Virus genome (UHGV): UHGV-0192279
Length of the DNA stretch: 50,405 bases
Reading direction: 5' to 3' (one strand)
Source of the DNA: a virus
Shown here: piece by piece, positions 19,958-42,952 of the stretch
Layout: every line of letters starts with the position of its first letter
Numbering within the stretch: position 1 is the first letter of the stretch
Notes under the pieces: model-generated
The model's database searches: none
Seen by the model: only the letters and a program-made list of their open reading frames with translations
Told to the model about the DNA's origin: nothing
Position numbers and translations under genes: made by a program

Positions 19958-20611
19958 TTATTCCGTGTATTCAACGTGTCCGATACATCCGTCAATAATA
20001 GCTTGCGCCATATTGCGATAATCACGCGAATAATCATTATCACGATTGAAATTTATTTCTCCTGCCGCATCCTCACCAATAACCTTCGTAGCCAGAGCAA
20101 ACGCAATTTGCGCCAGTGCTTTTTCTTTCGGATCAACGTATAAATAATAATTATAAAAACCCCATTCAATAGCATTTTCTTTCTGTATACTGCCTTTTTC
20201 TGTGTATACCCCGTATTTATCACCGATAAACTTAAACATTACAATCCCAATGTAATAGCCATCAGGATAATAACAATCAAGCCACACGCCGCACGGCGGC
20301 TTTTCTCCTGGCTTCCATTCTGTTTTTTCTTGTTGTGTTTCGCAATCATGGCGTTCATCTTCGATTAATTCATCAATGATTTCACTTTCTTTATTCATGC
20401 CGTCATCATCCTTATTCGATAAATTAGCGTATTTATCAAATTTCCAGCTTGCAGCCATAACCGAATAAGTGCCGCCAGTGTCAGCGCGGACACCCAATAA
20501 ATAGTATGATCCAAAATTATATTCTGTGCGGCATGTTGTTACCTCAAACGATGGGTAACATTCAGGGTTAGTGCGATGGCTAATCACGCCAATTGCTTTT
20601 AGTTTATTCAT
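19958..20611 (-). CDS. hypothetical protein (217 aa), last gene of leftward early operon
   Basis: ATG at 20611 with GAGGA SD (track start 20626 is TTG); no recognisable motif. Confidence 0.5.
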   Translation of the reverse strand: MNKLKAIGVISHRTNPECYPSFEVTTCRTEYNFGSYYLLGVRADTGGTYSVMAASWKFDKYANLSNKDDDGMNKESEIIDELIEDERHDCETQQEKTEWKPGEKPPCGVWLDCYYPDGYYIGIVMFKFIGDKYGVYTEKGSIQKENAIEWGFYNYYLYVDPKEKALAQIAFALATKVIGEDAAGEINFNRDNDYSRDYRNMAQAIIDGCIGHVEYTE

Positions 20612-20626
20612 TTTGCTTATCCTCAA

Positions 20627-20803
20627 TTACGCCACAGTTACGTTGTCAACTTTGATAAAATATTCAGGGTGATTTTCTATTTCGTGCTGAAAGTGAGCGT
20701 GACACAATCGCCACTCCCGCGCCTGGTTGTGGAAGTAATAAACATATTCGCCATCAACCTTATACAAAATTCCGGTAGGTTTAGCCATGTAATAACGCGC
20801 CAT
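20627..20803 (-). CDS. 58-aa ORF (MARYYMAKPTGILYKVDGEYVYYFHNQ...)
   Basis: Below track cutoff; ATG overlaps ninB stop (TAATG), GGGGG SD; exactly fills gap to next gene. Confidence 0.3.
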   Translation of the reverse strand: MARYYMAKPTGILYKVDGEYVYYFHNQAREWRLCHAHFQHEIENHPEYFIKVDNVTVA

Positions 20804-21234
20804 TATTGCCCCCAGCGTTTTATAAATTCCTCGTTTAATTTCGTATCACCCGACCATTGAACATCATGTTCCGCGCCGAACGAGTAAATCAATTCGATTA
20901 GTTCGCTGAATTCTGATTTACTCATTCGACTTGTAGACGTTCCCAATACAACGAAGCCTGATTTATCCAGGTTAGGGACTACGCCATATTTCTTAAGTCC
21001 GGCAGTGAATACCGCTTTCCAGTCTTCCGGCGACAGCTTCTTACCGTACCAATTAACCTGATCGCTAATGTCGGTCAACAGCGCCCAAAGCAACGCATTT
21101 TGGCTTAGCGAGCGGGTTTTCTCCTGAATGGTGATTATCAGCGGGCTTTTGCTATCAGGCTGGATCTCTCTTATCTGCCTGATAGCATTTTCTTTCACTG
21201 CGTCGTTGACTATCTCAAATCTAATTTGCCTCAT
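20803..21234 (-). CDS. ninB: NinB/Orf-family recombination mediator (143 aa)
   Basis: Strong similarity to lambda NinB (TIQE..RSL.QN..LWA, VFTA.LK...VVPNL...GFVV.G.STSRM). Confidence 0.8.
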   Translation of the reverse strand: MRQIRFEIVNDAVKENAIRQIREIQPDSKSPLIITIQEKTRSLSQNALLWALLTDISDQVNWYGKKLSPEDWKAVFTAGLKKYGVVPNLDKSGFVVLGTSTSRMSKSEFSELIELIYSFGAEHDVQWSGDTKLNEEFIKRWGQ

Positions 21235-21428
21235 GATACACCGTTACTATTTCGCCATATAGCACGCGCATACATAATCGCCTGCAAAGAAATTAGCCGC
21301 GAGCTTGTCATGTATTTTTCCTTTAATCTTTTCATATCAACCGTGACAGGCTTATCAGGATCATCGCCGCGCATGTATTCCGCGATCGTGCTTAAATCCT
21401 CCACGGTCAATTCTAAATCCTTGTCCAT
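21231..21428 (-). CDS. hypothetical protein (65 aa)
   Basis: ORF with overlapping start/stop in operon. Confidence 0.35.
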   Translation of the reverse strand: MDKDLELTVEDLSTIAEYMRGDDPDKPVTVDMKRLKEKYMTSSRLISLQAIMYARAIWRNSNGVS

Positions 21429-21437
21429 AATTCCCCC

Positions 21438-21644
21438 TTACACAATCCGCATTGTGTTTCGCAATTCCCCACGCAGCGCCCGCAATGCATCGTGCATTGG
21501 CACAAAAACCCGGTTAAATTTTACGTGTTTATATTTCCGCATCAGTGGCGGTGTATACACCTTTGCGTCGTATACTTCCCACGGATAATAAACGCGCGTA
21601 TCGTCGACAAACGTTTCAACTGAATAAAAGATTACCCGTCTCAT
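21438..21644 (-). CDS. hypothetical protein (68 aa)
   Basis: ORF with overlapping start/stop in operon. Confidence 0.35.
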   Translation of the reverse strand: MRRVIFYSVETFVDDTRVYYPWEVYDAKVYTPPLMRKYKHVKFNRVFVPMHDALRALRGELRNTMRIV

Positions 21645-22234
21645 AATTCTAACCCCGTTTCACCGTTAAGTTTTTCGATCTCAAATACTGGTTTATCCGG
21701 TAACAGGCCGTTATTTTTCCGGTATTCATTCAGGCGGCTGTCAAAATCAAACGCGAGATCATTAGCGTGACCAAAGCGCCCAGGTTTAAACAGTGAGTAA
21801 AAGTTAAGGCCGTGTTTTTTGGTGTCTATGCAAAGCGTTTCATCAAGTACCATTAAACGCAGCGTGCGCGACAGGTAATTCCACGGGATACCAGTTTCCG
21901 CGCTAATGTCACGCATACGCTTCTTAACGCTGTAGTCACTAAATAACGCCGCCACACGATCACGACGTTGTGCATACAAATATTTAATTCGATACCCCAA
22001 TAATCTGCGGCGCGGTCCGAAATATGTATATACACGCTCGACAATACCAGTATCAATCAAGTGTTTAATTGTCTCAGGCAAACATCCGGCTTCGTCATAT
22101 TTCGCTGATAATCCGGTTTTCTGGCGTAGCTGGTGCATTGTTGCGATGCAGTCCAGTTCAAGGATATTGATAACTTTTGTTTCAAGTTCAATGCTCATTG
22201 TTTTTCGTCTCGTTTTAAGCGCGAAAACAGCCAC
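21641..22234 (-). CDS. hypothetical protein (197 aa)
   Basis: ORF downstream of helicase gene; no recognisable motif. Confidence 0.45.
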   Translation of the reverse strand: MAVFALKTRRKTMSIELETKVINILELDCIATMHQLRQKTGLSAKYDEAGCLPETIKHLIDTGIVERVYTYFGPRRRLLGYRIKYLYAQRRDRVAALFSDYSVKKRMRDISAETGIPWNYLSRTLRLMVLDETLCIDTKKHGLNFYSLFKPGRFGHANDLAFDFDSRLNEYRKNNGLLPDKPVFEIEKLNGETGLEL

Positions 22235-22277
22235 CAGAAAGAGATCAACTTTCCGGTAAGCCGTTTGCTCAAGTTAA

Positions 22278-23699
22278 TTAAAAGGATGCGTTATTCTGGT
22301 TATTTCGTGTGGAGAATCGGCTTGCTGCCGGACGTTGTTGCATTGACTGGATGCAGGCGGACGCCGCGCGAGCCTGGTTGCATGGAATGATGTTGCCGTT
22401 ATCGTCAAACCGCTGGTAAACAGTCCCCGTTTTCCCGTAACGGTTTTTTGAAACGATGATCTCCATGTATTCGCGGGCAACTGATTGTTCGTTGTAGTAG
22501 CCGTCGCGGTAGACCATGATGATCCGGTCTGCGTCTTGTTCAAGATTACCGGAATCACGCAGATCAGAATTGTTCGGGCGCTTGTTCGGTCGTTCTTCAA
22601 CGCGGCGGGATAATTGCGCCAGCGCCGCCACTGGCACGCGCAACTCTTTCGCCATCATTTTCAATGACCACGACAATTGCCCTACGGCGAGATCATGACG
22701 TTCGGCCTTAGCCAGTTTCATTAACCCGATGTAGTCAATCATCACCATTCCAAGATTAGGATGGTCCTGTTTCATCCGTTCGACGGTGGCGCGTATTTCC
22801 TCAACCGTTAACTGCGATGCGTCAACAATCCACACATCGAGATCGGCAAGGGCGCTCATCCCCCGGGCAACGTGCGCCCATCCTTCGTCATCCAGTTTTA
22901 CCGGATTACGTAGGCAATCCGTTGATAAATTCCCAGCGCCAGCGATAGCTCGTTCAGTCATCTGATCGAGCGACATTTCAAGCGTGAACAGCAAAACGCC
23001 GACCCGCTGACCTTCTCCGCCAGGGTATTGGCGTCCAGCCGCCGCGCGGGCAATTGCCAACGCCAACGCCGATTTACCAGACCCCGGGCGTCCGGCGATA
23101 AGCACCAGATCAGTAGCGTTAATGCCGCCTAACATTTCGTCGAGTGGGTCAATCCCTGTTTTGATGTTGTCAGAGTTCACGCCACACTCCATGCGTTTAC
23201 TTAGCACTTCCGTGTATTCCTGGACAGCATCGCGCAACAGCACCGGGATAATCTGATCTTTTGTTACCTTTAATTTTGAATACCGGGAATCAAAATCTTT
23301 CATCGTCTCTTTGACAACTTCAAGCGTCCCCGTTTCCAGCTTGTAGCGAACGTCTTCCATTAGCTCCAGCATTTGCCGCCGCTGGTGTTCTTCCTGTAGT
23401 AGCTGCGCGTACCCTTTCAGGTTGGCAGCAGAAGGACACGATCGCGCCGTTTGCATTAGCGGTATGAAATTTTCGTTACCGATTTCATCACCAACCAATA
23501 ACGCGTCGATAAGATTTCTGTTTCTGGCTTGCGCCCTGATGATTTCGAACGCGCGCCTGTACAGAGGAATAGTGAATACATCAGGATCGAGTGTAGCAAG
23601 AACATCTTGCGCGTTAGGAGTAAGCCCGCCTAACAGGAGGCCACCTATAACAGCCGCTTCGCGCTCCTGCCGCAATGAGTTTACTTGGTCAGTTATCAT
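22278..23699 (-). CDS. dnaB: replicative DNA helicase, DnaB family (473 aa)
   Basis: N-terminal DnaB domain plus Walker A GRPGSGKSALALAIA and conserved RecA-fold motifs. Confidence 0.9.
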   Translation of the reverse strand: MITDQVNSLRQEREAAVIGGLLLGGLTPNAQDVLATLDPDVFTIPLYRRAFEIIRAQARNRNLIDALLVGDEIGNENFIPLMQTARSCPSAANLKGYAQLLQEEHQRRQMLELMEDVRYKLETGTLEVVKETMKDFDSRYSKLKVTKDQIIPVLLRDAVQEYTEVLSKRMECGVNSDNIKTGIDPLDEMLGGINATDLVLIAGRPGSGKSALALAIARAAAGRQYPGGEGQRVGVLLFTLEMSLDQMTERAIAGAGNLSTDCLRNPVKLDDEGWAHVARGMSALADLDVWIVDASQLTVEEIRATVERMKQDHPNLGMVMIDYIGLMKLAKAERHDLAVGQLSWSLKMMAKELRVPVAALAQLSRRVEERPNKRPNNSDLRDSGNLEQDADRIIMVYRDGYYNEQSVAREYMEIIVSKNRYGKTGTVYQRFDDNGNIIPCNQARAASACIQSMQQRPAASRFSTRNNQNNASF

Positions 23700-23709
23700 T
23701 ATGGCATTA

Positions 23710-23727
23710 CCTCATGTTTACAAAATG
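23710..23727 (-). repeat. 18-bp repeat CATTTTGTAAACATGAGG (minus strand), copy 1, upstream of helicase start
   Basis: 17 of 18 nt identical to 24846-24863; contains start-stop mini-ORF ATGAGGTAA and the TACA-N3-TGGA motif. Confidence 0.6.
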
Positions 23728-24851
23728 GAATATTCAGGGTAATAAACAAAGCGCCCAATTTCTCCATGAGCCGGGCTGTAAATAATCACCGCCGCCAGCC
23801 GCCGTGAACGCCAGCCGCCATTCGTCGAGTAAGCATCTTTGCCAGCTAACGTTCCGTGATACTCGACAACGCCTAACGATGATTCAATCAGCCGCTGGTG
23901 ATGCCAGTGTCCGCAATGAGCGTAAACTGACGACGATTTACCGAAATCCTCCCGCCAGTCAGAAACACAGGCAGCAAGTAAGGTTTCTGGTTTTTTGATG
24001 GTGTGTCCGTGGTGGTAAGCAAGGAATGTTTTTCCGTATTGTGTGTGGTGGACGATAGCAGGGGACACATCAACCGTTACGCGCGGTTCATCTTCGTAAA
24101 AAGCCGCCAGCGCCGCACGTAGCCAAATCATCCCCGACTGATCGTGATTGCCGGATAACACCTGGATCTCGACGTCCTTATGGTTTAACAACATTTTCCC
24201 CACCGCACGCCGGACCGACCGGATCGCCACATAAACAAGTTTTGCGTAGCGTGAATCGCAATCTAAGACGTGATTACTTGATGGCGTCACTGGTAATAGC
24301 CCGTCCGTGTGAAGCACATCACCGCCGAGAAGCAATACAGCTTTTTCAGACGTTGGTGCAGCGCCTACAGCGTAGTCAAAGAAGTCATTTAACACGCGTT
24401 CAGCGATCCCGGTGTCGTAGCTTTCTCCGCATTCAGCTTTATGCGCAAGCGCCCCGATATGCAGATCGAATACCGGATAAAGGGCCAGGCTTTTCTGAAA
24501 ATCAATTTCCGGCACTGGCACGGCTTCCTCGCGCGGCATTTCTTCCGTAAATGCGTCACAAGCTGCCTGCATTAGCCTTTCCATTTCCTCACGGTCACGG
24601 GCCGTTTTAATCCAGCGCATGATTACATTGCCATCTTTATCAACGAGCAATGATTCACCATTGACACCAAAACCCGGCGCGCGGCGCGTGGATATTAAAC
24701 CGCGTTTCGCCAGCCGTGCGCCCAGGCGCTCGACGTTGCGTTTTGCCATGCCGTACTTCTCAGCGATCTGTTTATACGTCAGGCCGCTGTTATGTTCAGC
24801 GATTAATTCCTCATCGCTGATCTTTCTTTGTGACATAACGTTATTCCTCAT
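23718..24851 (-). CDS. HTH domain fused to metallophosphoesterase (377 aa)
   Basis: N-terminal HTH (LTYKQIAEKYGMAKRNVERL); C-terminal calcineurin-like motifs DLHIG, GGDVLHTDG, GNHD, GHWHH. Confidence 0.7.
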   Translation of the reverse strand: MRNNVMSQRKISDEELIAEHNSGLTYKQIAEKYGMAKRNVERLGARLAKRGLISTRRAPGFGVNGESLLVDKDGNVIMRWIKTARDREEMERLMQAACDAFTEEMPREEAVPVPEIDFQKSLALYPVFDLHIGALAHKAECGESYDTGIAERVLNDFFDYAVGAAPTSEKAVLLLGGDVLHTDGLLPVTPSSNHVLDCDSRYAKLVYVAIRSVRRAVGKMLLNHKDVEIQVLSGNHDQSGMIWLRAALAAFYEDEPRVTVDVSPAIVHHTQYGKTFLAYHHGHTIKKPETLLAACVSDWREDFGKSSSVYAHCGHWHHQRLIESSLGVVEYHGTLAGKDAYSTNGGWRSRRLAAVIIYSPAHGEIGRFVYYPEYSIL

Positions 24852-24863
24852 GTTTACAGAATG
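24846..24863 (-). repeat. 18-bp repeat CATTCTGTAAACATGAGG (minus strand), copy 2; ATG here is the start codon of the phosphoesterase gene
   Basis: Near-identical to 23710-23727; contains perfect palindrome TACAgaaTGTA. Confidence 0.6.
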
Positions 24864-24965
24864 TATATTTATTTCCCGTAAAACGCGCTACAACGCAAAA
24901 TCCCACCGCGTAACCCACTTATAAGAGTGCAGTGTCTTTCTTGCGTCAGAGGCGCTATCAGGTGG

Positions 24966-25154
24966 CTATTTTTTGATTTTTAAGATGACATAAACGTTAG
25001 CTTGTTGGCGTCCATGCAATTTACTCCTGCAAATGGCTATTACTCCGGCCTGTTCCAGAGATCGGATCGCTAGCTTAACACTTTGCCGACTCACTCCCAA
25101 CCTGTCAGCAAGCATGATAAGTGATATTTGATAACCTCCCGTCCGGCAATGCAC
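24966..25154 (-). CDS. small winged-helix/HTH protein (62 aa)
   Basis: Segment DRLGVSRQSVKLAIRSLEQAGVI is HTH-like; GTG start, weak SD. Confidence 0.3.
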   Translation of the reverse strand: MHCRTGGYQISLIMLADRLGVSRQSVKLAIRSLEQAGVIAICRSKLHGRQQANVYVILKIKK

Positions 25155-25207
25155 AGCCAGCAGATCGTAAACTTTACGCTCAGTTTTGGTTAATTTCGTG
25201 AAAAGCC

Positions 25208-25293
25208 CTTAAACGCTCTATAACGAAGAAAACGCATTAAGCCAAGCAAGTATAGCACTTGATATGTTTTATCGCGTTAGGGGAGCGTTTAAG
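25208..25293. repeat. 11-bp perfect inverted repeat CTTAAACGCTC ... GAGCGTTTAAG enclosing 64 bp
   Basis: Arms at 25208-25218 and 25283-25293 in intergenic gap of leftward operon. Confidence 0.5.
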
Positions 25294-25326
25294 TGGGTTA
25301 TTTTGGGTTTTTGTGAAGCTTGGTAG

Positions 25327-26379
25327 TCAAAGAGCGCCAGCGCGGGTGTCGCGTAGCGTTTTTGGTTTTAGTAAGAAATCTAGTGTCGCAGTGAAGCCAT
25401 TGCCGAAGTAAAAATCTGAGGCCGTATTTTTGAACGCTTCGAAGTAGCTGATAAAGCCTTTGACGCTTTTATCTTTCAGGTAGTCAGAGAACGCATAAAT
25501 TTTACGTTCCAGATCCCGATCAAGTTCAGCAGGTGGTAACAGGCCATCAAACGTGCTGTTAAATGCTTCCACTACGTCGGCGGCGTTTACAGTAGCTGAT
25601 AGCTTGCGCCATTGTTCAGCATCAGCCAAATACCCATCAAACTTAGTTACCCGGCAAATGTTGATAGGCTTAGGTGTTCCACCACGGCTACGCCATTGCG
25701 TTAAAGCCCACTCAATCACTAATGTGATCTCATCCTCCGTATACGCTTTACGTGTTTTTGTTTCTGTCAGTAGTTCTACGAATGGCTTAGCATCACGACA
25801 TTTGCATCCTGCCTTGTCGTTGTAGAAGGCCAGGCAACGCAATGCCGCTTCGTTTACGCCATCCTGATTGACCATTTTTTGTTCATTTTCGACAATACAC
25901 GAAGTGTATATATCTTTTTCTCTTTCTTTTTCTACTTCTAATTCTAATTCATGACCCTTTCCTGACCTGGTCATGACCCGGTCATGACCTTTTTGTGTTG
26001 GATTGATTAACTTTTCTAATGTTAATTGCTCCTTCGCTGTGTTTATGGCGGCCCTGTAAGCGCTTTTAGAAGTCATTGATTGGTCCAGCCTTTTCAATAA
26101 CTTTAAACAAGTTATGTGGCCTTGAGAACATTCAAACAAACCAATTTCGATGAAGTATTTCATCATTTCTTCTATACGTTTTTCAGTAGATCCGACGTTT
26201 CGCGCAATTATTCTTGCGTCATGTCGTAGGTCAAAAGTTAGATTGTGCTGATCTACGTCATAAGTTATTAGTTCTAGGCAATACCAATAAAGCCCGTACC
26301 CTTCCAGGCCATAATCTAATAAAACGTTTTGAAGTTTTTCATCGCGGTTTGCATCGCTATCATGCTTAAACCATTTCAT
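25327..26379 (-). CDS. replication initiator / replisome organiser (350 aa)
   Basis: N-terminus MKWFKHDSDANRDEKL...EGYGLYWY resembles phage replisome-organiser N-domain; gene contains iteron array and AT-rich tract. Confidence 0.65.
   Translation of the reverse strand: MKWFKHDSDANRDEKLQNVLLDYGLEGYGLYWYCLELITYDVDQHNLTFDLRHDARIIARNVGSTEKRIEEMMKYFIEIGLFECSQGHITCLKLLKRLDQSMTSKSAYRAAINTAKEQLTLEKLINPTQKGHDRVMTRSGKGHELELEVEKEREKDIYTSCIVENEQKMVNQDGVNEAALRCLAFYNDKAGCKCRDAKPFVELLTETKTRKAYTEDEITLVIEWALTQWRSRGGTPKPINICRVTKFDGYLADAEQWRKLSATVNAADVVEAFNSTFDGLLPPAELDRDLERKIYAFSDYLKDKSVKGFISYFEAFKNTASDFYFGNGFTATLDFLLKPKTLRDTRAGAL
25949..25989. repeat. putative replication origin iterons (4 x TGACC at exact 11-bp phasing, two full GGTCATGACC palindromes)
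   Basis: TGACC at 25952, 25963, 25974, 25985; immediately 3' of a 45-bp AT-rich pyrimidine tract (25905-25948); located inside initiator gene as in lambda O/ori. Confidence 0.55.
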
Positions 26380-26382
26380 AGA

Positions 26383-26637
26383 TCATTCCTCCGGCAATGC
26401 AATGTCATAAATGTCGCCGTATTCGTCAGCGCGTTTAATGAATCCTTTGCGGATCAATGAATTTAATGCGTCAACAGTAGTATGCAGTGGCAGTTCGCAC
26501 ACTTTTGCGATCTCTTCGCGTGAAGCATGTGCGCGGCCTTTGTTGTCTGCCTTTTCTGCAAACGCAATTAAGACAAGTTTTTGGATCGGGCTGTTAAGTT
26601 TTACGTTCCATGCTTCATTCATCATGTGCATACTCAT
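26383..26637 (-). CDS. small HTH DNA-binding protein in cro position (84 aa)
   Basis: First gene of leftward operon divergent from repressor; AGGAG SD; winged-helix-like segment; could be Cro analogue or initiator-associated DNA-binding protein. Confidence 0.5.
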   Translation of the reverse strand: MSMHMMNEAWNVKLNSPIQKLVLIAFAEKADNKGRAHASREEIAKVCELPLHTTVDALNSLIRKGFIKRADEYGDIYDIALPEE

Positions 26638-26746
26638 CTTGTTTTTCTCCTATGGTTAGAGTGAACGCGCGGGCGGGCATCCCATTAGCATTAGATAGCA
26701 GTGACTGACCGCTCAACAGATCCCGCCGTTGCGTGATATTTGTTTT

Positions 26747-26780
26747 TCGCTTCGCAGCGACACCGGATTTTTAAAGAGCA
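26747..26780 (-). promoter_or_regulatory. nut-like site (boxA-like TGCTCTTTAAAAA + hairpin TCGCT-gcga-AGCGA) in leader of leftward operon
   Basis: Minus-strand boxA matches lambda nutL/rrn boxA consensus; 8 nt later a 5-bp stem with GNRA-type loop. Confidence 0.45.
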
Positions 26781-26979
26781 TGAGGTATGCGCCTTTTTGT
26801 GCTATTCCGTTATCTTTTTTTTTGCGTCTTTGCAACTATGGCCTTACCTTGTCTGCAAGTTTACAGAATGGAGTTTTTAAATCAAGGCTTTGAAAAATAC
26901 ATTTTGTGACTTGTATCAAACTTTTGAGGTTATAGGGTAGCGACATGAAAACAAATGGTATGACTTAGCAAAGCAGCTC

Positions 26980-27591
26980 ATGCGAGCGCAAGGCATGAGC
27001 CAGGATTCACTCGCGGATCTCATGGGGATAACTAAAGGCGGCCTGTCACACTGGCTTAACGGTCGCCGCGAGCCAAATCTTGAAGATATTGCGCGGATTA
27101 TGCGGGCACTTGGTCGTCGGCAGTTCACTGTTACCCATGATGGAATGGTCATTGATGATTCTGTTTCTAACACGTTACCGGGAGCGCCGCAGCGTGATTT
27201 AGGCAGTTACCCGGTTGTTGACTGGAAGGACACAGTAAACAATATGGAAGATACAAGGCGATCAACATTACCACACGTTACGACTAGCGTTATTTGTTCA
27301 GATGATAGTTACTGGCTGGTTGCTAAAGGTGAATCAATGAACGCGCCGCAGGGGTTGAGCATCCCTGCCGGGACGATGATACTTGTTGACCCACACGCGC
27401 CAGCTATCGATGGAAAGCTGGTTATAGCACAGCTTGAGGAAGGGCAAATACCGACGTTTAAACAGTTGATTATTGATGGAGGTCAAAGGCTTTTACGTTC
27501 GCTTAACCCGCTGTATCCACCAATCCCCATGAATCCTGAATCGAAAATCATAGGCGTGGTGGTGGACGCGAAGATCGTAAACCTGCCATAA
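26980..27591 (+). CDS. CI-like repressor (HTH_XRE + S24 LexA-like peptidase), 203 aa
   Basis: N-terminal HTH (SQDSLADLMGITKGGLSHWLNGRREP) and C-terminal S24 domain with Ser (GESM) and Lys (TFKQL) dyad. Confidence 0.85.
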   Translation: MRAQGMSQDSLADLMGITKGGLSHWLNGRREPNLEDIARIMRALGRRQFTVTHDGMVIDDSVSNTLPGAPQRDLGSYPVVDWKDTVNNMEDTRRSTLPHVTTSVICSDDSYWLVAKGESMNAPQGLSIPAGTMILVDPHAPAIDGKLVIAQLEEGQIPTFKQLIIDGGQRLLRSLNPLYPPIPMNPESKIIGVVVDAKIVNLP

Positions 27592-27597
27592 AAAATT

Positions 27598-27622
27598 AGC
27601 CGCCGAATGGCGGCTTTTCTTT
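27598..27622 (+). terminator. rho-independent terminator after repressor gene
   Basis: AGCCGCC-gaat-GGCGGCT followed by TTTTCTTT. Confidence 0.65.
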
Positions 27623-27714
27623 GCCCTGAAAACACCAAAACGTAAACATAAAACGTGTTTTATTATTTAAATATCAATGACATATAAAATATTTAAAAAA
27701 GTATACAAAATGGA

Positions 27715-27743
27715 TTGACTCGGTGTATCACGGGGCGTATATT
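27715..27743 (+). promoter_or_regulatory. candidate early promoter (pL analogue): TTGACT -17- TATATT
   Basis: Near-consensus -35 and -10 with 17-bp spacer; TACA-N3-TGG motif abuts -35; about 40 nt upstream of boxA. Confidence 0.5.
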
Positions 27744-27785
27744 TCGAGGCAAAGGAGGTAGCAAGGCAGGGGAAAGAAGGTTACT

Positions 27786-27823
27786 TGCTCTTTAACAATC
27801 TGGTCAGCCGCTGGAAGTGCGGC
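27786..27823 (+). promoter_or_regulatory. nutL-like site: boxA TGCTCTTTAACAAT + boxB-like hairpin GCCGC-tggaagt-GCGGC
   Basis: boxA identical to E. coli rrn boxA core; hairpin 7 nt downstream; located in leader of N-like gene. Confidence 0.6.
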
Positions 27824-27879
27824 AATTAATGAAGATGATTTTTATTAAGTATCATCATGGGATATAAGGAGATCAGATT

Positions 27880-28170
27880 ATGACCGTAACAATTATGTAT
27901 GGCAAATGTGATAGCAAAATAAATGCCAGGGAACGCAGAAGAATAAAAAGAGAAAACGAAAGAAAATCATCACCTGCAATCAATAAAACTGACAATGTTG
28001 ATAAAGCTATTCGTTTTGCAAACGTAGAAAGATGCAAACCGAATGGCATTAAAGAGCATCGCAAAGGTGCGGCAAAATGGTATGCGGAAAACGAAAGCGG
28101 CAATTACTACCACGCAACACAACCGCGTAGTCTAGGGGAAAAACCCCTGGATAAAGTACGCTACAGATAA
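27880..28170 (+). CDS. N-like transcription antiterminator (96 aa)
   Basis: N-terminus MTVTIMYGK...NARERRRIKRENERK resembles P22 gp24/lambda N arginine-rich motif; AAGGAG SD; preceded by nut site. Confidence 0.65.
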   Translation: MTVTIMYGKCDSKINARERRRIKRENERKSSPAINKTDNVDKAIRFANVERCKPNGIKEHRKGAAKWYAENESGNYYHATQPRSLGEKPLDKVRYR

Positions 28171-28200
28171 TACAAAATGTAAACTTTCAAAGGTGACATT

Positions 28201-28323
28201 ATGGTTGTTCAGGCGCTTCAATTCAAACTGGCTGTAGCGGAAATGCTTCACGATGCCGAAATGTGGAGCACCGCGAATAAAGCTTTATATGTAGTGTTAA
28301 CAGCGAGGGAGATTAAAGGGTGA
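28201..28323 (+). CDS. 40-aa ORF (MVVQALQFKLAVAEMLHDAEMWSTANKALYVVLTAREIKG)
   Basis: AAGGTGA SD; stop overlaps erf GTG start; preceded by perfect TACAaaaTGTA. Confidence 0.3.
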   Translation: MVVQALQFKLAVAEMLHDAEMWSTANKALYVVLTAREIKG

Positions 28324-28961
28324 AAACAGAATTACATAAAAAGCTGTGGACTATTCAGCAGACGCTGAATGCGCCGAAAAGTCAGCGCAATAATTTTGGC
28401 GGTTATAATTATCGTTCGGCAGAAGATATTTTAGAGGCTGTTAAACCACTGCTTCAAAATATCACTCTGACGGTAAGTGATGAAATCGTCTTAATTGGCG
28501 AACGCTATTACGTGAAAGCTACGGCGACACTAAGTGACGGTGAGGACGCGATAGCGGTAACTGCTTACGCAAGGGAGGAAGATAATAAGAAGGGAATGGA
28601 TGCAAGCCAGCTAACAGGAGCAACATCAAGTTACGCGCGGAAATATGCTTTGAACGGTTTATTCTGCATAGACGATGCAAAAGACGCGGATACTGATGCT
28701 TACAGTAAGCAGACAGGCCAGCAGCCTAGACAGCAGAAAAACCAGCCAAAACAACAACAGCAGCAGCAGAAAGCGCCGCCAAATCCTGATGAAGTGTTAG
28801 CGCGTTTCTGTGATGCAGCAGCGAAAGCGCCGGACGCTAACAAGTTGCGTGAAATATTCGGTAAATGCTGGAAATTACTGCCGGAAGGATCGGAACATCG
28901 AGTTAAAGCAAAAGATGTTTATGACATCCGGATCGCAGAGCTTAATGTGGAGATGAGCTAA
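28320..28961 (+). CDS. erf: Erf-family single-strand annealing protein (213 aa)
   Basis: Strong similarity to P22 Erf (LNAPK.Q.N.FG.Y.YRS.EDILE.VKPLL, SDEIVLIG.RYYVKATAT, GATSSYARKY.LNGLF.IDDAKDADT). Confidence 0.9.
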   Translation: MKTELHKKLWTIQQTLNAPKSQRNNFGGYNYRSAEDILEAVKPLLQNITLTVSDEIVLIGERYYVKATATLSDGEDAIAVTAYAREEDNKKGMDASQLTGATSSYARKYALNGLFCIDDAKDADTDAYSKQTGQQPRQQKNQPKQQQQQQKAPPNPDEVLARFCDAAAKAPDANKLREIFGKCWKLLPEGSEHRVKAKDVYDIRIAELNVEMS

Positions 28962-29380
28962 TGAGTTTAAATTCAATCACGCTTGGCGGGAATATCGGAA
29001 ACGACATGGAAGTACGCTATACGCAAAACGGGAAGGCGATTGGTAGTTTTCCGTTAGCTGTAACGAATGGCTACGGCGATAATAAGCGGACGATGTGGAT
29101 CACTTGCCTGGTATTCGGTGAGCGAGCGGAAAAATTAGCGTCACATATCCGCAAGGGTGGAAAGATAGTTGTAAGTGGTCGCCTGGATGTTCGGCAATAT
29201 GACCGGAACGACGGCACTAAGGGGACGGCGGTAGAAGTGGCGGTTAACGAATTTGAATTCATGAACGTTAACCAACAAGGCCAGCAGCAAGGCCAGCAGC
29301 AGAAAGCGCCGCCGCAGCAGCAGAATAATAACGGGAATAATCCGCCGCCGATGGACTTCGATGACGATATCCCGTTCTGA
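28961..29380 (+). CDS. ssb: single-stranded DNA-binding protein (139 aa)
   Basis: OB-fold SSB pattern, Gln/Gly-rich linker and acidic C-terminal tail MDFDDDIPF. Confidence 0.9.
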   Translation: MSLNSITLGGNIGNDMEVRYTQNGKAIGSFPLAVTNGYGDNKRTMWITCLVFGERAEKLASHIRKGGKIVVSGRLDVRQYDRNDGTKGTAVEVAVNEFEFMNVNQQGQQQGQQQKAPPQQQNNNGNNPPPMDFDDDIPF

Positions 29381-29395
29381 TTAAATAGGTTAGCG

Positions 29396-29674
29396 ATGGG
29401 TGATTATTTAAAAGCGCCACCGCCACCACGAACAAAAGAGCAAGTATTAAAAGAAGCCCGTGATCAAATCGATCATGAGCTTTTTTTATGCGGCACGGCA
29501 GCGGATCGGATGGCAAAAAGATTTAGTGACCTGTACGCAAAGCAAATATGGTTCGACAACTGGCAGGCAAGTTTTTACCCACTACAGAAAACTGATGATA
29601 TGCATTGGCCTGAATATGTCGATCCACGTATGCGCAAATATCGCGGGCGTATGGGCCAGGTTATTAACGATTAA
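29396..29674 (+). CDS. hypothetical protein (92 aa)
   Basis: ORF in early operon. Confidence 0.4.
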   Translation: MGDYLKAPPPPRTKEQVLKEARDQIDHELFLCGTAADRMAKRFSDLYAKQIWFDNWQASFYPLQKTDDMHWPEYVDPRMRKYRGRMGQVIND

Positions 29675-29687
29675 TGAGGAGTTAATC

Positions 29688-29939
29688 ATGACAGCTACAA
29701 CATTAAGCGAAAATAACTGTAGAGGTTTTCAGAGAACTGCGGAAAGCCTTGATGATAGTGATGTATTTGTTGATTTCGGCGGCGGCAACTATGAATTCGA
29801 AACGTCTGCGGGCTGGAGTGATAAATGGCCTTTCCCTACTCGACAGGAATTAAGCGATCGTAAATCATTTGGCGAAGATGCCGAACGCCTGGCGAATAAT
29901 AAATGGCTGGATAAATTTATTGCGGAGGCTGAAAAATGA
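29688..29939 (+). CDS. hypothetical protein (83 aa)
   Basis: ATG at 29688 with GAGGAG SD (track ORF 29460 extends upstream in same frame across previous gene). Confidence 0.4.
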   Translation: MTATTLSENNCRGFQRTAESLDDSDVFVDFGGGNYEFETSAGWSDKWPFPTRQELSDRKSFGEDAERLANNKWLDKFIAEAEK

Positions 29940-30055
29940 ACATAATCAAAATAGCAGCGTTATCCGCAGGGGTTGCAATAGCGGTTGCTTATCTTGCCGC
30001 TTCGCTTTATATCACGATAGCGATCATAAAACTGATTACTAATATGTGGGGTTAA
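29936..30055 (+). CDS. 39-aa single-TM peptide (MNIIKIAALSAGVAIAVAYLAASLYITIAIIKLITNMWG)
   Basis: Below track cutoff; GGAGG SD; ATGA overlap with upstream stop; hydrophobic core. Confidence 0.4.
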   Translation: MNIIKIAALSAGVAIAVAYLAASLYITIAIIKLITNMWG

Positions 30056-32139: not shown

Positions 32140-32181
32140 TGCCTTATAGATTGAGCGCGCTTAAACAGGCGGTATTAATGC

Positions 32182-32385
32182 ATGAAGTTTAAACATTACA
32201 GGGAATGGAAAATTCCAGAAGCAGCAACAAAGGCAGCGCCAGGTGATTTTTCTGGCGTTTATTTTTATATGGATGGCGAATGGTATTTCGGCAGCAGGCC
32301 GGATCACTATTACCATGAAGTATGCAAGCCCCACGTATGGGATATTAAAGAACGCGTGAAAGACGGAGTGATTGAGGACGTTTAA
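32182..32385 (+). CDS. hypothetical protein (67 aa)
   Basis: ORF in early operon. Confidence 0.4.
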   Translation: MKFKHYREWKIPEAATKAAPGDFSGVYFYMDGEWYFGSRPDHYYHEVCKPHVWDIKERVKDGVIEDV

Positions 32386-32387
32386 AA

Positions 32388-32624
32388 ATGTTTAAGAGCT
32401 TTTTAAACTGGTTGGGAGCGTGGCTTTTAGCTACGCTTTTTGTTTTCCTGGCGGCAGCGGCTGTTATCGTCGTTATTATGCTGGGGGCGATTTTTATTAC
32501 GTGGTCGATGCCTGAATTTAACGACATTGGGAATATTCTTTTTGTCGCCCGCGCTTTATTGGCGGTTAGCGCATTTGTCGGGTTTTGCTGGACTGCCGCG
32601 CCAGATTGGGATGATCCGTTTTAG
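32388..32624 (+). CDS. small membrane protein (78 aa, 2 TM helices)
   Basis: Two long hydrophobic segments. Confidence 0.45.
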   Translation: MFKSFLNWLGAWLLATLFVFLAAAAVIVVIMLGAIFITWSMPEFNDIGNILFVARALLAVSAFVGFCWTAAPDWDDPF

Positions 32625-32626
32625 TT

Positions 32627-32860
32627 ATGGCTTTATTCAACCTGTCAGAGCCGCAATTTAATGCCGTTAAAACTGCCGCGCGGGCGGCGCTTTCTGCCTG
32701 CAAGACAGAGGTGGAAAGAAACGGATATAGCGATAAAGCCACGCGGCTGATACTCGACAAGCATTATCGCAAGGTCGCCCCGCTAATCAGCATTGAGCGT
32801 TTTGTGTGGTTGGTGGGGTATCTGAATAACCGCTGGGGGACGGAGCAGGATTATTTCTAA
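32627..32860 (+). CDS. hypothetical protein (77 aa)
   Basis: ORF in early operon. Confidence 0.35.
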   Translation: MALFNLSEPQFNAVKTAARAALSACKTEVERNGYSDKATRLILDKHYRKVAPLISIERFVWLVGYLNNRWGTEQDYF

Positions 32861-32869
32861 GGGGGCGCA

Positions 32870-33217
32870 ATGAAAAATGATTACGGCGGCAGTCATACGC
32901 CGAAAGAAATAAAAGACCTATGGCAGACGCCGAAACCTGTTTTTAGAGGAATGGATCGGGAATTCGAATTCGTCGCGGTTGTTTCCGGTGCGCTTATTTC
33001 TGGCGGCGTTTACCGGGTTCTACCTGGTGATTTCGATTCCAAACGCTGGCCTGCAAATATAGCGTCCGCCATTGGCGATGCGTTAATTTTTCCCACGCTA
33101 TCGTTTATGGCATTTATGCCGGAAATATCAGCTATTCAATTCATCTCAAAAATGGCAGCGGTAACGGTGATCACTATCATCATGCGCCGCTATTTCACGT
33201 TTGAGGGTGGAAAATGA
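32870..33217 (+). CDS. hypothetical membrane-associated protein (115 aa)
   Basis: GGGGG SD; hydrophobic segments. Confidence 0.4.
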   Translation: MKNDYGGSHTPKEIKDLWQTPKPVFRGMDREFEFVAVVSGALISGGVYRVLPGDFDSKRWPANIASAIGDALIFPTLSFMAFMPEISAIQFISKMAAVTVITIIMRRYFTFEGGK

Positions 33218-34075: not shown

Positions 34076-34108
34076 TACTCTTTAAAAATCCGGCATCGCT
34101 GAAATGCG
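34076..34108 (+). promoter_or_regulatory. third boxA-like element TACTCTTTAAAAAT with adjacent hairpin
   Basis: CTCTTTAAAAATCCGG is a 16/16 match to the minus-strand element at 26765-26780; upstream of nin-like genes. Confidence 0.4.
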
Positions 34109-34137: not shown

Positions 34138-34314
34138 ATGTCTTTTGATGATTACCAATGGCATGACGACTATGAAAGAGAAAGCGTCATGCGTGCAATG
34201 TGCAATGTATGCAGCACGAAGAAAGGAGGCTGTAACGAGTGCAACGAATGCTTAGAACATTGGCTAAGGGCCGGACACGCCGAAAGGCGGAACGAAACAG
34301 AGAATCAAAAATAA
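34138..34314 (+). CDS. small Cys-rich zinc-ribbon-like protein (58 aa)
   Basis: AAGGAG SD; CxxC...CxxC...C pattern. Confidence 0.35.
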   Translation: MSFDDYQWHDDYERESVMRAMCNVCSTKKGGCNECNECLEHWLRAGHAERRNETENQK

Positions 34315-34328
34315 TCGGGGTGGTTTTT

Positions 34329-34934
34329 ATGCAGAACCCTAAAAAAACCATAAGACGCCGTTGCAAATGCTGCGGCGTTTTTTTTGAGCCTAAATATCAC
34401 AACCAGACGTGGTGCAGCGATGAATGTCTGGAAGAACTGAAGTTTGATCAGCTATGCCGCGACCGTGAGAAGGCTATGAAGGCTATGGAACGGAAGAAAC
34501 GCCGTGATAGCCAGCGGGAAGAACGAAACCGGAAGCGGAAGCAGTTAAATCCGCGTAGCTACTGGATTAAACAGGCGCAAAACGTTTTTAACGCTTATAT
34601 ACGCGAGCGTGACGCGCGATTGCCGTGTATATCTTGCGGGACTTACTACGGTGAGCAATGCGGGTGGGATGCGGGCCATTACAGGACGGTAGCCGCCGCC
34701 GGACACCTTCGCTTTAACGAGGATAATTGCCATAAACAATGCAGGCACTGCAACCAGACATTAGACGGAAACACCGGAGGGTATCGCCCTGCGCTGATTC
34801 GAAAAATTGGCCTCGCAATGGTGGTTGCGCTGGAGAACAACAACGATACACACAAATGGACGATCGCAGAATGTAAGGAGCTAATAAACATCTATCAGGC
34901 GAAATTGGACGCCTTAAGGAGAAAGGCAGCATGA
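34329..34934 (+). CDS. ninG: NinG/Rap-family recombination endonuclease (201 aa)
   Basis: N-terminal RCKCCG zinc-binding start and conserved central Cys/His pattern typical of lambda NinG; ATG 34329 with GGGGTGG SD. Confidence 0.7.
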   Translation: MQNPKKTIRRRCKCCGVFFEPKYHNQTWCSDECLEELKFDQLCRDREKAMKAMERKKRRDSQREERNRKRKQLNPRSYWIKQAQNVFNAYIRERDARLPCISCGTYYGEQCGWDAGHYRTVAAAGHLRFNEDNCHKQCRHCNQTLDGNTGGYRPALIRKIGLAMVVALENNNDTHKWTIAECKELINIYQAKLDALRRKAA

Positions 34935-35338
34935 ATGAATATACCTTTAGCCTGCCTTACCCGCCATCGAATAACCGCTATTACCGACATTCACGGGGTT
35001 TTCACTATATCAGCGAAGTGGGGAAGGAATACCGGGAACAAGTAAAAGACATCATCGAATTATTAAATCTAGACATTAACCTGTCTTGCCGACTGGCAAT
35101 CGCCATTTATGCCGCGCCGCCTGATAACCGGACCAGGGATCTTGATAATATCCCTAAATGCCTATTTGACAGCCTTACTTATGCCGGATTTTGGAAAGAT
35201 GATGGACAAATTGACTCAATAAAAATTGTCCGCTGCCGGAAGGTAAAAGGCGGACGCTTGTTTATTAAGATCCGCGAACGCGGCGACCTACTACCGGATA
35301 TTGACGAATACGCGACTAATATGTGGGGTGAGCAATGA
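34931..35338 (+). CDS. rusA: RusA-family Holliday junction resolvase (135 aa)
   Basis: Typical RusA pattern (LPYPPSNNRYY, DLDNIPKCLFDSLTYAGFWKDDGQI). Confidence 0.85.
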   Translation: MNEYTFSLPYPPSNNRYYRHSRGFHYISEVGKEYREQVKDIIELLNLDINLSCRLAIAIYAAPPDNRTRDLDNIPKCLFDSLTYAGFWKDDGQIDSIKIVRCRKVKGGRLFIKIRERGDLLPDIDEYATNMWGEQ

Positions 35339-35517
35339 AAAACGAAGTTAAAGATCTGCAAATAGATATTCAGCGCGATGAGCATGATTTAGCTACAGTC
35401 CGACAAATCCAGGCTTTTCATATGCGCGAATTGCTTGCATTGAAAGAGCTTGAGAAAAAGTTAGTCCAGTCTATTTCTGATCGTAAACAACTTATTGCTC
35501 GTTACGGGGGGAAATAA
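35335..35517 (+). CDS. small coiled-coil protein (60 aa)
   Basis: ORF with ATGA overlap. Confidence 0.4.
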   Translation: MKNEVKDLQIDIQRDEHDLATVRQIQAFHMRELLALKELEKKLVQSISDRKQLIARYGGK

Positions 35518-36239
35518 TGAATTTAGAATCCATTCTGAAATTCCACTTTCCCAAATCACCGCGATTATCAGACGAAAGCCGGGGCACATCCCCGGATGCG
35601 CTTAATACGACTGATGCGCTAACCGCTGCGGGTATGGCGCAATCGCGCGTAGAGCTTGGCTATAGTGCTTTTTTAGGGAAGATGGAGCTATCGCAAGCCG
35701 AAAAACACAGGGCTGTAGTATTGCTTACAGAGCGTTTAAGAGCTATGGCGAAAGATTACGAATATGTGATGGAATTAAATGAAGAACAACGCAATGATCT
35801 TATTATTCTTGTTGCCGTTTTCGCGTTTCGGGATTATTGCCAAAGCGCCGCGACGGAAAAAACTTGTATGGAGTGCGGCGGATATAAATTTACGTTTGAC
35901 GACTACGGAGAAAAACATCTTTGCAAAAAATGCAAGGGGCATGGAAAGGTTCGCAATCATTGTAAACAATGCAAGGGGAGTGGCGAGATACCGGATAAAA
36001 CAGCCAGCGAAGCGGCGGAAATGCCAGTATTCAAAACGTGCCAGCACTGCGGCGGGCGAGGCTACTCGCGTTTCCCTGTAGATCTTGTCCGGCAGGCTGT
36101 TAACCAGCTTGTTTTCCCGGTAAGCCGATCAACATGGTGGAAGAAATACAGGGTTTTCTATGAGGACGCCATAGCGGAGCTATTCAAAGAAGAAGCCCGC
36201 GCGGAAAGCGAAATCAAGCGAGTGACACGGGGTGAATAA
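35517..36239 (+). CDS. putative late antiterminator Q-like protein with 4 CxxCxGxG zinc-finger repeats (240 aa)
   Basis: Position directly after rusA as in lambdoid prophages; four DnaJ-type CxxCxGxG repeats; family assignment tentative. Confidence 0.4.
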   Translation: MNLESILKFHFPKSPRLSDESRGTSPDALNTTDALTAAGMAQSRVELGYSAFLGKMELSQAEKHRAVVLLTERLRAMAKDYEYVMELNEEQRNDLIILVAVFAFRDYCQSAATEKTCMECGGYKFTFDDYGEKHLCKKCKGHGKVRNHCKQCKGSGEIPDKTASEAAEMPVFKTCQHCGGRGYSRFPVDLVRQAVNQLVFPVSRSTWWKKYRVFYEDAIAELFKEEARAESEIKRVTRGE

Positions 36240-41439: not shown

Positions 41440-41519
41440 CATGAGCCATTTTTACCTATGACAGCGAAAGAAATTATTACGATGGTTAATCATGGGTACT
41501 GGCGCAAGGTTGGTGATTT

Positions 41520-41693
41520 ATGAATGAGATCGAAGACGGTGTATATGTGCATAACTTATTTGATATTGCTTACTTGCTGAAAGAGGAAAAGGTTTTTGTT
41601 ATGTCGAGTGAGCATCCTTTCTGGACTGGCGTAAACATGGATCGTGAACAGATGCAAATATTGCTTGATAATGGCCTGATAAAGAAGAAATAG
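41520..41693 (+). CDS. 57-aa ORF (MNEIEDGVYVHNLFDIAYLLKEEKVFVMSSEHPFWTG...)
   Basis: Below track cutoff; last ORF before late terminator. Confidence 0.3.
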   Translation: MNEIEDGVYVHNLFDIAYLLKEEKVFVMSSEHPFWTGVNMDREQMQILLDNGLIKKK

Positions 41694-41759
41694 AAGCCAT
41701 GATCGCGCATAAAAAACAAATAGATTAAAATACTTCCTAACAATGCGAAATTGTAATTA

Positions 41760-41786
41760 CCCGGCCCAGCGCCGGGTTTTTGCTTT
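41760..41786 (+). terminator. rho-independent terminator immediately upstream of lysis genes (tR'-like)
   Basis: CCCGGC-ccagc-GCCGGG followed by TTTTTGCTTTG; 16 nt before holin SD. Confidence 0.65.
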
Positions 41787-41801
41787 GTTGGAGGTAAATC
41801 T

Positions 41802-42002
41802 ATGCTCGACAAAATACGGGAGACGTGCGCGTATGCAGTAGGGGCCGTAACGGCCTTTTTCGGTGCGATAACCATCAATGATGTTGCTGTCTTTGTGGGT
41901 ATCTTATCAACCGCAGGTACATTTGCCGTTAACTATTACTTCAAATCACAGGAGAACAAGCGAGCGCAAGAGGAACACGACGCGCGAATGGGGAATAAGT
42001 AA
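41802..42002 (+). CDS. holin, phage-21 S-like pinholin (66 aa)
   Basis: GGAGGT SD; two hydrophobic helices and charged C-terminus resembling S21 (…YFK..E..R). Confidence 0.7.
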   Translation: MLDKIRETCAYAVGAVTAFFGAITINDVAVFVGILSTAGTFAVNYYFKSQENKRAQEEHDARMGNK

Positions 42003-42494
42003 ATGATTAGCCAATCGCTGAAGAACAAGATTATTGCTGCGGCGGCTGGTGGGGCGATCTCTATTGCGGCTGTGATGGTTAAATCATTAGAAGGCGTGGA
42101 GTACGATCCGTATCGTGATGTTATCGGTGTATGGACTGTATGTTATGGTCATACCGGAAAAGACATCATGCTTGGTAAGACTTACACGCAATCAGAATGC
42201 GATGCTTTGTTAAATAAAGATCTCCACAAAACCGCAAAAGCGATCGACCCCTATATTAAAGTCGAAATATCAGATTTTACCCGCGCGGCGCTTTATTCAT
42301 TCGCCTATAACGTAGGCGCTACCAACTTTAAAACATCAACATTATTGAAGCTACTCAATGACGGCAAGAAATCGGAAGCGTGCGCACAGCTTAAACGCTG
42401 GATCTATGCTGGTGGTAAGCAGTGGCAAGGGTTAATTAACCGTCGTGATATTGAATATGCCGTTTGCGAATGGGGTGAAACATGGACAAGGTAA
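42003..42494 (+). CDS. SAR endolysin, lysozyme GH24 family (163 aa)
   Basis: N-terminal signal-anchor-release segment [17 protein letters not shown] followed by E-x8-D-x5-T catalytic motif ([23 protein letters not shown]) as in phage 21 R. Confidence 0.9.
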
Positions 42495-42952
42495 AGGCGT
42501 TAGTTATTGCCGTTGTTGTTTGCATTATTGCCGGACTAACTGCCGTTACATGTTATTACCAGGGTGAGGCGGCAAGGTTACAGGAAGAAGTCACGGTGAC
42601 GCAAGGCGCACTAAAAACAGCAAGTAACACTATTCAGCAGATGAAGGAGCGAAACGCAGAGCTATCAAAACTTGATAAGAGGTATCACGATGAAATTAAA
42701 GCTATCAGATCTGACATTGCCGATCTTCGCGCTGGCATTGATAGCGGCGCTATCAGGTTGCACGTCAACGCCGAGCCAGTGCGATTGCTCGACAATACCG
42801 GAACCGCCAGCCGCATTGATGGAGCCACCTGTAGACTCACTGCCGACGCTGAATCGGCTTATCTATCCCTCAGAGAACAACTAAAAGAGAAAGACGCGAA
42901 GATCACCGGATTGCAGGACTACATCAAAACGCAGTGCTTACGCAAAAAATAA
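42482..42952 (+). CDS. i-spanin (Rz-like), 156 aa
   Basis: N-terminal TM helix then coiled-coil periplasmic domain; overlaps endolysin end. Confidence 0.7.
42690..42884 (+). CDS. o-spanin (Rz1-like lipoprotein) embedded in +1 frame of i-spanin (64 aa)
   Basis: ATG 42690 with AAGAGG SD; lipobox LSGC after signal peptide; Pro-rich mature part. Confidence 0.6.
   Translation: MKLKLSDLTLPIFALALIAALSGCTSTPSQCDCSTIPEPPAALMEPPVDSLPTLNRLIYPSENN

Follow-up and report, generated by a model that had tools for sequence, protein, structure and literature searches.

An integrase-less mEpimmI-type gut coliphage with a deletion ending in the core of its attachment site

The virus genome UHGV-0192279 is a stretch of 50,405 nucleotides, referred to here as the window. 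Its region 19958-42952 encodes a CI-like repressor and an N-like antiterminator, and no integrase. The window is very probably a complete, circularly permuted phage genome of the mEpimmI group whose integrase gene (int) was lost by deletion. mEpimmI phages are Nus-dependent, non-lambdoid temperate coliphages from human feces, described in 2025, and a tyrosine integrase adjoins the phage attachment site (attP) in 48 of the 48 described members (Negrete-Mendez et al. 2025, PMC11893012). The window lacks int because of a lineage-specific deletion of ~1.44 kb. This single event took out the final two bases of the att core, the P' arm in full, int, and 35 codons at the 3' end of the adjoining helix-turn-helix (HTH) gene. 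It is the first integrase-less member documented in a group where the integrase was reported to be universal.

Seven complete phage genomes (mEp010, mEp554, mEp044, mEp013, mEp515, mEp021, and MagusPhagus) cover 60-86% of 19958-42952 at about 85-87% identity, as found by megablast against 50,697 phage records. The six mEp phages align over 73-86% of this region at ~85% identity, and the same phages are matched by the structural half of the window. By local blastn, the whole window is collinear with mEp021 in 24 blocks that keep order and orientation. The last 600 and first 600 bases of the window give one alignment block on mEp021 (31883-33101). Because the window is thus a complete circle, int does not merely lie beyond its end. 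The small terminase is Sf6-like. Terminases of the Sf6/P22 type package DNA by the headful mechanism, so this phage may do the same, consistent with a permuted assembly. The phage is a new species-level member of mEpimmI, with about 85% identity to the described genomes, and is a gut Escherichia coli phage.

The window shares with mEpimmI a collinear genome (83-87% nucleotide identity), the Rep021-type repressor, Gp17, three nut sites, the operon directions, an Sf6-type small terminase, and a lambda-like tail tip. Its guanine-plus-cytosine content is 46.2%, the value reported for the group (PMC11893012). In contrast to the described members, it has no tyrosine integrase, no P' arm, and no 3' half of the adjoining HTH gene. 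It also lacks two HNH endonucleases, an N4/N6 methyltransferase, and a zinc-ribbon protein, carries a Dam-membrane protein fusion, and measures 50.4 kb as against 53-54.7 kb. The absence of the integrase is a secondary loss with visible scars and is no argument against common descent with mEpimmI.

The integrase is truly absent from the window. Pfam scans of the predicted genes in the early and structural regions found no Phage_integrase, Resolvase, Recombinase, rve, ParA/ParB, or protelomerase domain at E <= 0.01. The tape-measure and J tail proteins stood outside these scans and were identified from synteny with annotated mEp021 genes. The same recombinase and partition domains are absent from ten long antisense open reading frames (ORFs) at E <= 0.1. 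A tblastn search of the window with five integrases of the group, of types I and II, gave a best E of 0.3, and an unfiltered six-frame hmmsearch with a profile of the group integrases gave no match at E <= 100. The claim of the preliminary description that the window holds no tyrosine or serine recombinase and no partition gene therefore stands after sensitive searches with Pfam, PHROGs, tblastn, and six-frame hmmsearch. A minus-strand ORF of 320 amino acids (aa) at 16555..17517 was considered as a small tyrosine recombinase and rejected; it has a DUF6453 domain and is a virion protein in mEp021.

In mEp021, att is followed by int (186..1400, plus strand), a 76-aa HTH gene (1340..1570, minus strand), and gp03 (1574..2227, minus strand), and the tail-tip gene lies at the opposite end of the record from att and int. 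In intact members, the leftward operon ends at the small HTH gene, which converges on a P4-type tyrosine integrase beside attP, and the target of attP is dgcM (ydaM). In the window, the gp03 homologue is only ~290 bp from the last tail-region ORF. The interval between them is made up of the following features.

19399..19665, plus strand: last tail-region ORF, 88 aa, also called in M15; in dgcM-integrated prophages, the identical protein is the final one, with zntB next
19666..19827: P arm of attP, kept, 97.8% identical to the attR side of the M15 prophage
19709..19732, plus strand: intrinsic terminator-like hairpin with a T-run, closing the tail operon; mEp021 and the M15 prophage have it at their right end too
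19828..19837: att core remnant TCCAGACAGG, 10 of the 12 bases of TCCAGACAGGAC, the core taken from the attL/attR comparison
19836..19837: deletion joint, a GG common to the core (CAGG|AC) and the HTH gene (GTCGG|GGAAC in M15-type relatives)
19824..19958, minus strand: truncated HTH (Xis/AlpA-like) gene, 44 aa, by translation alignment; Pfam HTH_23, E = 8e-7
19837..19861, plus strand: hairpin with a 10-bp stem followed by AUUUUUU, the top-ranked terminator-like site (dG -16.6 kcal/mol, z -3.5)
19958..20611, minus strand: gp03 homologue, 217 aa, 69% identical to mEp021 gp03, the last intact gene of the leftward operon

The 12-bp common core TCCAGACAGGAC was derived by comparing attL of FAH and M15 with attR of M15. 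It is supported by the reconstructed attB, which is intact in dgcM of 5,387 of 5,426 complete E. coli genomes, and by four IMG/VR contigs (L046, L063, L076, and L079) that hold an intact attP, with P arm, core, P' arm, and int in order. Relative to these four contigs, the window is short by 1,438-1,440 bp exactly at the joint. The missing segment encodes an integrase of 404 aa; the integrases of relatives contain Arm-DNA-bind_3 and Phage_integrase domains. The joint reads ...AATCAT TCCAGACAGG|GGAACGGAGTTCC..., where the cut falls before the last AC of the core. At 19738-19758, the kept P arm has the motif GTGTACCAAATAGTGACCAAA; in relatives, this motif recurs in the P' arm, immediately upstream of int.

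The two sides of the joint have different matches. To the left of 19837, prophages in four other assemblies (L011, L012, L014, and L015) match the window with 99.5% identity over 5.4 kb. Their homology to the window ends at 19837, after which zntB, dbpA, and ttcA follow in those contigs. To the right, the window matches the middle of the HTH gene, then gp03, of FAH, M15, and mEp021. The dgcM prophages with a type I integrase (M15, FAH, and L011-L015) have the same P arm and att core as the window and a tail-fiber module that is 97.8-99.5% identical, and the first 41 residues of their HTH protein are identical to the window stump. They differ in being integrated, with attL, int, and the HTH gene intact, and in their gp03 and replication modules, where identity to the window is only 84-92%.

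The HTH gene is cut after codon 41 of a 76-aa protein. The residues CLE and a stop codon are then read from the att core, and the product ends in ...PFPCLE. The preliminary description had reported no excisionase; this part of the claim needs correction, as the stump of the int-adjacent HTH gene is present and was overlooked because its 44 aa fall below the 60-aa cut-off used for ORFs at that time. An excisionase role is suggested by the size of the gene and its position adjoining int, the domain itself being a generic HTH_23. The full-length HTH protein of M15 matches Xis_Gifsy_1 weakly and below threshold (E = 0.016). The hairpin at 19837..19861 begins at the first base after the deletion and lies ~50 nt past the int stop codon in intact relatives. 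It is probably the int terminator of those relatives.

A survey of the P arm and core in IMG/VR found eight true sites, four attR and four intact attP, with no further att-ended deletion among them. Every fetched relative whose int region was examined has int. These are the annotated records of FAH, M15, MagusPhagus, and mEp010, ten prophages matched through exact NinB, and the four IMG/VR contigs with attP. The exact NinB protein is widespread (751 index blocks), and the ten places shown are prophages integrated next to ogt, all with int. In two of these ogt-side prophages, an ABG_transport (abgT) fragment was called beside int. One of the attP contigs, L063 (IMGVR_UViG_3300045988_084845, about 10485-11697), is a free form with an intact attP and an int that is frameshifted near codon 202. 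The frameshift may be a sequencing error; otherwise, it is another, independent route of int loss in the group.

It is slightly more likely than not that the phage's own integrase (Int) made the deletion. Within one molecule, the attP core would recombine with a secondary site, which lies at the foot of the int terminator hairpin. Alternatively, aberrant excision would join the attR core to this secondary site and leave attL and int in the chromosome. Either core, attP or attR, would give an identical product. As expected of an att-ended deletion, one end point lies within the core, since the joint follows TCCAGACAGG of TCCAGACAGGAC. A random deletion that removes int and spares the tail genes would have a ~3% chance of a left end in the 12-bp core (12 of the ~460 bp of permissible non-coding spacer, in mEp021 coordinates). 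The right end abuts three copies of the heptamer TCCGTTC, which form the arms of the hairpin at 19837-19861. Relatives repeat this heptamer in the P' arm. It may serve as an arm-type Int site or may be a by-product of the codons for ERNGT.

It is documented that Int can recombine attP with secondary sites, some of them within a prophage or phage genome (PMC6379469). The att-ended (b2-type) deletions of lambda resemble the present one in that the phage is viable, the end point is at the att crossover, and one att arm and integration are lost. Lambda deletions with one end at att are the classic Int-promoted product and were reportedly described by Parkinson and Huskey in 1971 and by Davis and Parkinson in 1971. 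The differences are that Int dependence was genetically shown in lambda and is inferred here, that int itself and the P' arm are removed here, and that this is a natural metagenome lineage, not one selected in the laboratory.

An illegitimate event independent of Int is also quite possible. Replication slippage, hairpin processing, or a topoisomerase error would have acted between two short G-runs, and the location in the core would be coincidental. Such an event has to place its left end by chance in a 12-bp target within ~460 bp of dispensable spacer, and it leaves the heptamer common to the P' arm adjoining the other end. Several findings weigh against the Int mechanism, and the first three of them favor an illegitimate event. 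The microhomology at the joint is only the two nucleotides GG. Aligned in the register needed for the observed product, core and secondary site agree at a non-significant 6 of 15 positions. The right end coincides exactly with the foot of a strong hairpin with a 10-bp stem, a position that also fits Int-independent recombination. The TCCGTTC cluster is absent from the HTH gene of mEp021, so it is possibly a by-product of the ERNGT codons. No near-identical int-plus ancestor of the gp03/HTH side was found among complete E. coli genomes (best 92%), and for this reason the ancestral base at the joint is taken from M15-type relatives.

A different explanation is that the phage reaches lysogeny by another route, e.g., as a plasmid prophage, through host XerCD, by transposition, or with an unrecognized recombinase among its small ORFs. 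About 35 small ORFs have no assigned function, and several samples yielded the phage as a free circle on assembly. The explanation is nevertheless unlikely. The Pfam scans of the predicted genes and the ten antisense ORFs gave no ParA/ParB, protelomerase, serine recombinase, transposase, or plasmid Rep domain. PHROGs matches to the window ORFs include no family of the integration and excision category. No dif-like (XerCD) site occurs in the window within 3 mismatches, and 19600-30000 has no similarity to any of 72,556 plasmids. The window has no domain of the kind that marks an N15-type linear plasmid prophage (protelomerase, ParAB/SopAB partition, and plasmid replicase). The ORFs of unassigned function are common to int-bearing relatives.

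The joint is 100% identical in at least six metagenome assemblies made by different pipelines. In ENA ERZ654051, NODE_12 is the same phage at 100% nucleotide identity, and its 50,460 nt equal 50,405 plus a 55-nt SPAdes overlap. In ENA ERZ28621327, a scaffold of 50,946 nt equals 50,405 + 2 x 243 + 55. The other assemblies with the joint are ENA ERZ653495 and Logan SRR6054582, SRR6054577, and SRR5165992. Apparently circular contigs of this phage, ~50.4 kb long, occur in two assemblies. By gene tables, the int-less arrangement is found in 11 of 11 public contigs with the exact gp03 protein and in 10 of 10 with the exact 372-aa protein of the replication operon. In the three gp03-exact contigs whose DNA was fetched, the joint string itself is present. 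Matches were obtained by exact-protein look-up with ATG starts (gp03 and the 88-aa ORF); the same look-up with TTG-start gp03, TTG-start 88-aa ORF, and the 44-aa stump gave no match. An exact search with the 26-nt joint found it absent from IMG/VR, GTDB representative genomes, and JGI metagenome contigs. A 243-bp segment at 25198-25441 (the 3' end of the initiator gene and spacer) is single-copy in the window and a tandem repeat in two other assemblies of this phage (L030 and L031). The 50,946-nt scaffold fits three copies of it.

These assemblies bear on whether the missing integrase is an artefact of assembly or windowing, where a chimeric, collapsed, or incomplete contig would stand for a real phage with int. 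The window is 3-4 kb shorter than the described members, as such an artefact would predict. The remaining size difference is explained by the absent HNH, methyltransferase, and zinc-ribbon genes, and the wrapped ends align as a single block to mEp021. The deletion is not an assembly artefact because a 2-nt repeat is too short to collapse a de Bruijn graph and because the joint recurs. The artefact is therefore highly improbable. An incomplete assembly had been named in the preliminary description as a way for its claim to fail; this did not arise, as the ends join on mEp021 and the 50,460-nt contig contains the full circle plus its overlap. A temperate design that lacked an integrase from the start and uses a novel regulatory circuit, to which the presence of a repressor and antiterminator without int might point, can hardly be right in view of the scars (P arm, 10 of 12 core bases, truncated HTH gene, and orphan int terminator), the syntenic int in all 48 described relatives and in the fetched relatives examined there, and the prior publication of the circuit.

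The deletion is a property of a circulating lineage that is assembled as a free circle. The genes for the repressor, antitermination, replication, lysis, and morphogenesis, as well as the operator region, look intact from their sequence. The phage would repress itself (abortively) and grow lytically, and would fail to integrate even with Int supplied in trans, because int, the P' arm, and part of the core are gone. It probably spreads as a free, effectively non-lysogenizing phage. More tentatively, and with doubt, it may be a naturally circulating "ex-temperate" gut coliphage, in which Int catalyzed a self-deletion at attP, immunity and antitermination stayed functional, and the phage persists free across several human-gut samples. 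Two considerations temper this view: a single study or person may be the source of all the metagenome samples, and the consequence for lifestyle is itself inferred. If it is true, the conversion of a temperate into a non-integrating phage has been caught in the act, and predictors of lifestyle based on the integrase give the wrong answer.

Resolved to the base pair, the deletion has an anatomy that implicates the phage's own site-specific recombination system. The phage is a concrete example for studying the loss of lysogeny by temperate phages in the gut. It is also a warning for tools that predict a virulent lifestyle from the lack of an integrase, as the repressor here is 98% identical to an experimentally characterized one. 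The interest that remains is in the att-core-ended deletion and in the presence of the lineage in several gut metagenomes.

The early region accounts for the remainder of the preliminary description, which had reported an S24 CI-like repressor, an N-like antiterminator, nut sites, and recombination genes, together with an operon layout the reverse of that in lambda and P22. Gene identities rest on Pfam and PHROGs scans, percent identity to mEp021 proteins, and synteny. The nut-like sites were called from sequence and the 2025 description of the group (PMC11893012). The features of the repressor region and rightward operon are as follows.

26742-26780, minus strand: nutL-like site, boxA TGCTCTTTAAAAA and a boxB hairpin, upstream of the repressor gene at a place that matches mEp021 nutL
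26995..27591, plus strand: CI-like repressor, 198 aa, Pfam HTH_3 and Peptidase_S24, 98.0% identical to Rep021 (mEp021 gp15)
27598-27615, plus strand: predicted terminator after the repressor gene
27715-27743, plus strand: pR-like promoter TTGACT-17-TATATT
27786-27823, plus strand: nutR1-like site, boxA TGCTCTTTAACAA and boxB GCCGCTGGAAGTGCGGC
27880..28170, plus strand: N-like antiterminator, 96 aa, Gp17 homologue, 92.7% identical to mEp021 Gp17
28320..28961, plus strand: Erf recombinase, Pfam ERF, E = 4e-41
28961..29380, plus strand: SSB, Pfam SSB, E = 6e-23
34076-34108, plus strand: nutR2-like site, TACTCTTTAAAAATCCGG and a hairpin, closely resembling nutL
34239..34934, plus strand: NinG, by Pfam
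34931..35338, plus strand: RusA, by Pfam
35517..36239, plus strand: Q-like antiterminator (Antiterm), by Pfam, 94.2% identical to mEp021 gp37
41802..42952, plus strand: lysis cassette of holin, lysozyme, and Rz-like protein, Pfam Phage_holin_2_3, Phage_lysozyme, and Phage_lysis

The leftward early operon (20803..26637, minus strand) was assigned by Pfam, PHROGs, and collinearity with mEp021 gp04-gp14. It includes the following genes.

26383..26637, minus strand: HTH_36 protein, by Pfam
25327..26379, minus strand: Lin1244_N replication initiator, by Pfam
23718..24836, minus strand: exonuclease-like protein, 372 aa, phrog_704 "DNA repair exonuclease", E = 1e-136
22278..23699, minus strand: DnaB helicase, by Pfam
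21641..22198, minus strand: MarR-like protein, by PHROGs
20803..21234, minus strand: NinB, by Pfam

The genes reported earlier were confirmed by Pfam and by identity to mEp021, and three predicted boxA/boxB-like sites sit at the published positions of nutL, nutR1, and nutR2. The conserved arginines of Gp17 are R17, R19, R20, and R24 (PMC11893012). The arginine-rich motif of the N-like protein has R17, R19, R20, R21, and R24. A third perfect copy of the boxA decamer TGCTCTTTAA occurs at 28049-28058 on the minus strand, antisense within the N-like gene. It is probably due to chance, with 8 matches at <=1 mismatch against 4 expected.

The reported directions were likewise borne out by Pfam and PHROGs. 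The genes for ERF, SSB, NinG, RusA, the Q-like protein, holin, lysozyme, and Rz run in the same direction as the structural genes and the N-like gene, and the leftward genes, with replication, run in the direction of the tail genes. The order in lambda and P22 is int-xis-recombination-N-cI-cro-replication-nin-Q-lysis with rightward replication. In the window, replication is instead in a leftward operon, the erf and ssb recombination genes are rightward with the N-like gene, and the repressor is co-directional with N. The mEpimmI type differs further in its three nut sites and in an Int convergent with the early left operon. What the window has in common with lambda and P22 is an S24 CI-type repressor, N- and Q-type antitermination with Nus factors, nin-region genes, and an Erf/SSB recombination module that resembles that of P22.

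The architecture is thus atypical relative to lambda and P22, as first described, but it is not new. The layout, with the repressor, Gp17, erf/ssb, nin, Q, and lysis rightward and nutL, replication, ninB, gp03, and the HTH gene leftward, is the mEpimmI norm (PMC11893012). The "reversed lambda wiring" is this published architecture, which removes its apparent novelty. The implied temperate design that dispenses with an integrase is not supported either, given the ~1.44-kb deletion and the int of every described member.

Iteron-like repeats, TGACCnGGTCA in a 22-nt unit of 1.9 copies, lie at 25949-25990 inside the Lin1244_N initiator gene and are a candidate replication origin. Iterons within the initiator gene recall the lambda origin inside gene O. 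The 372-aa protein of the same operon yields only weak N-terminal HTH matches in Pfam, and its DNA is weakly similar to Klebsiella phages.

An ORF of 115 aa at 32870-33217 matches the N-terminus of Dam methyltransferase over its first ~30 residues; the rest belongs to phrog_4899 (uncharacterized) and looks hydrophobic. Relative to mEp021, 1,158 bp are missing here (17911-19069); the gap starts within gp30 and ends within gp32, the latter a putative membrane protein, and is a second deletion, which made an in-frame fusion. At 8199-8625 on the minus strand, between the tape-measure and minor-tail genes, an ORF of 86 aa with a ParE-like toxin domain (E = 9e-9) is preceded by one of 51 aa. The pair may be a toxin-antitoxin moron. 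An ORF of 82 aa at 9449-9697 on the minus strand has a KilAC/ANT antirepressor domain, and its DNA is 96% identical to mEp021 gp71, far above the genome average.

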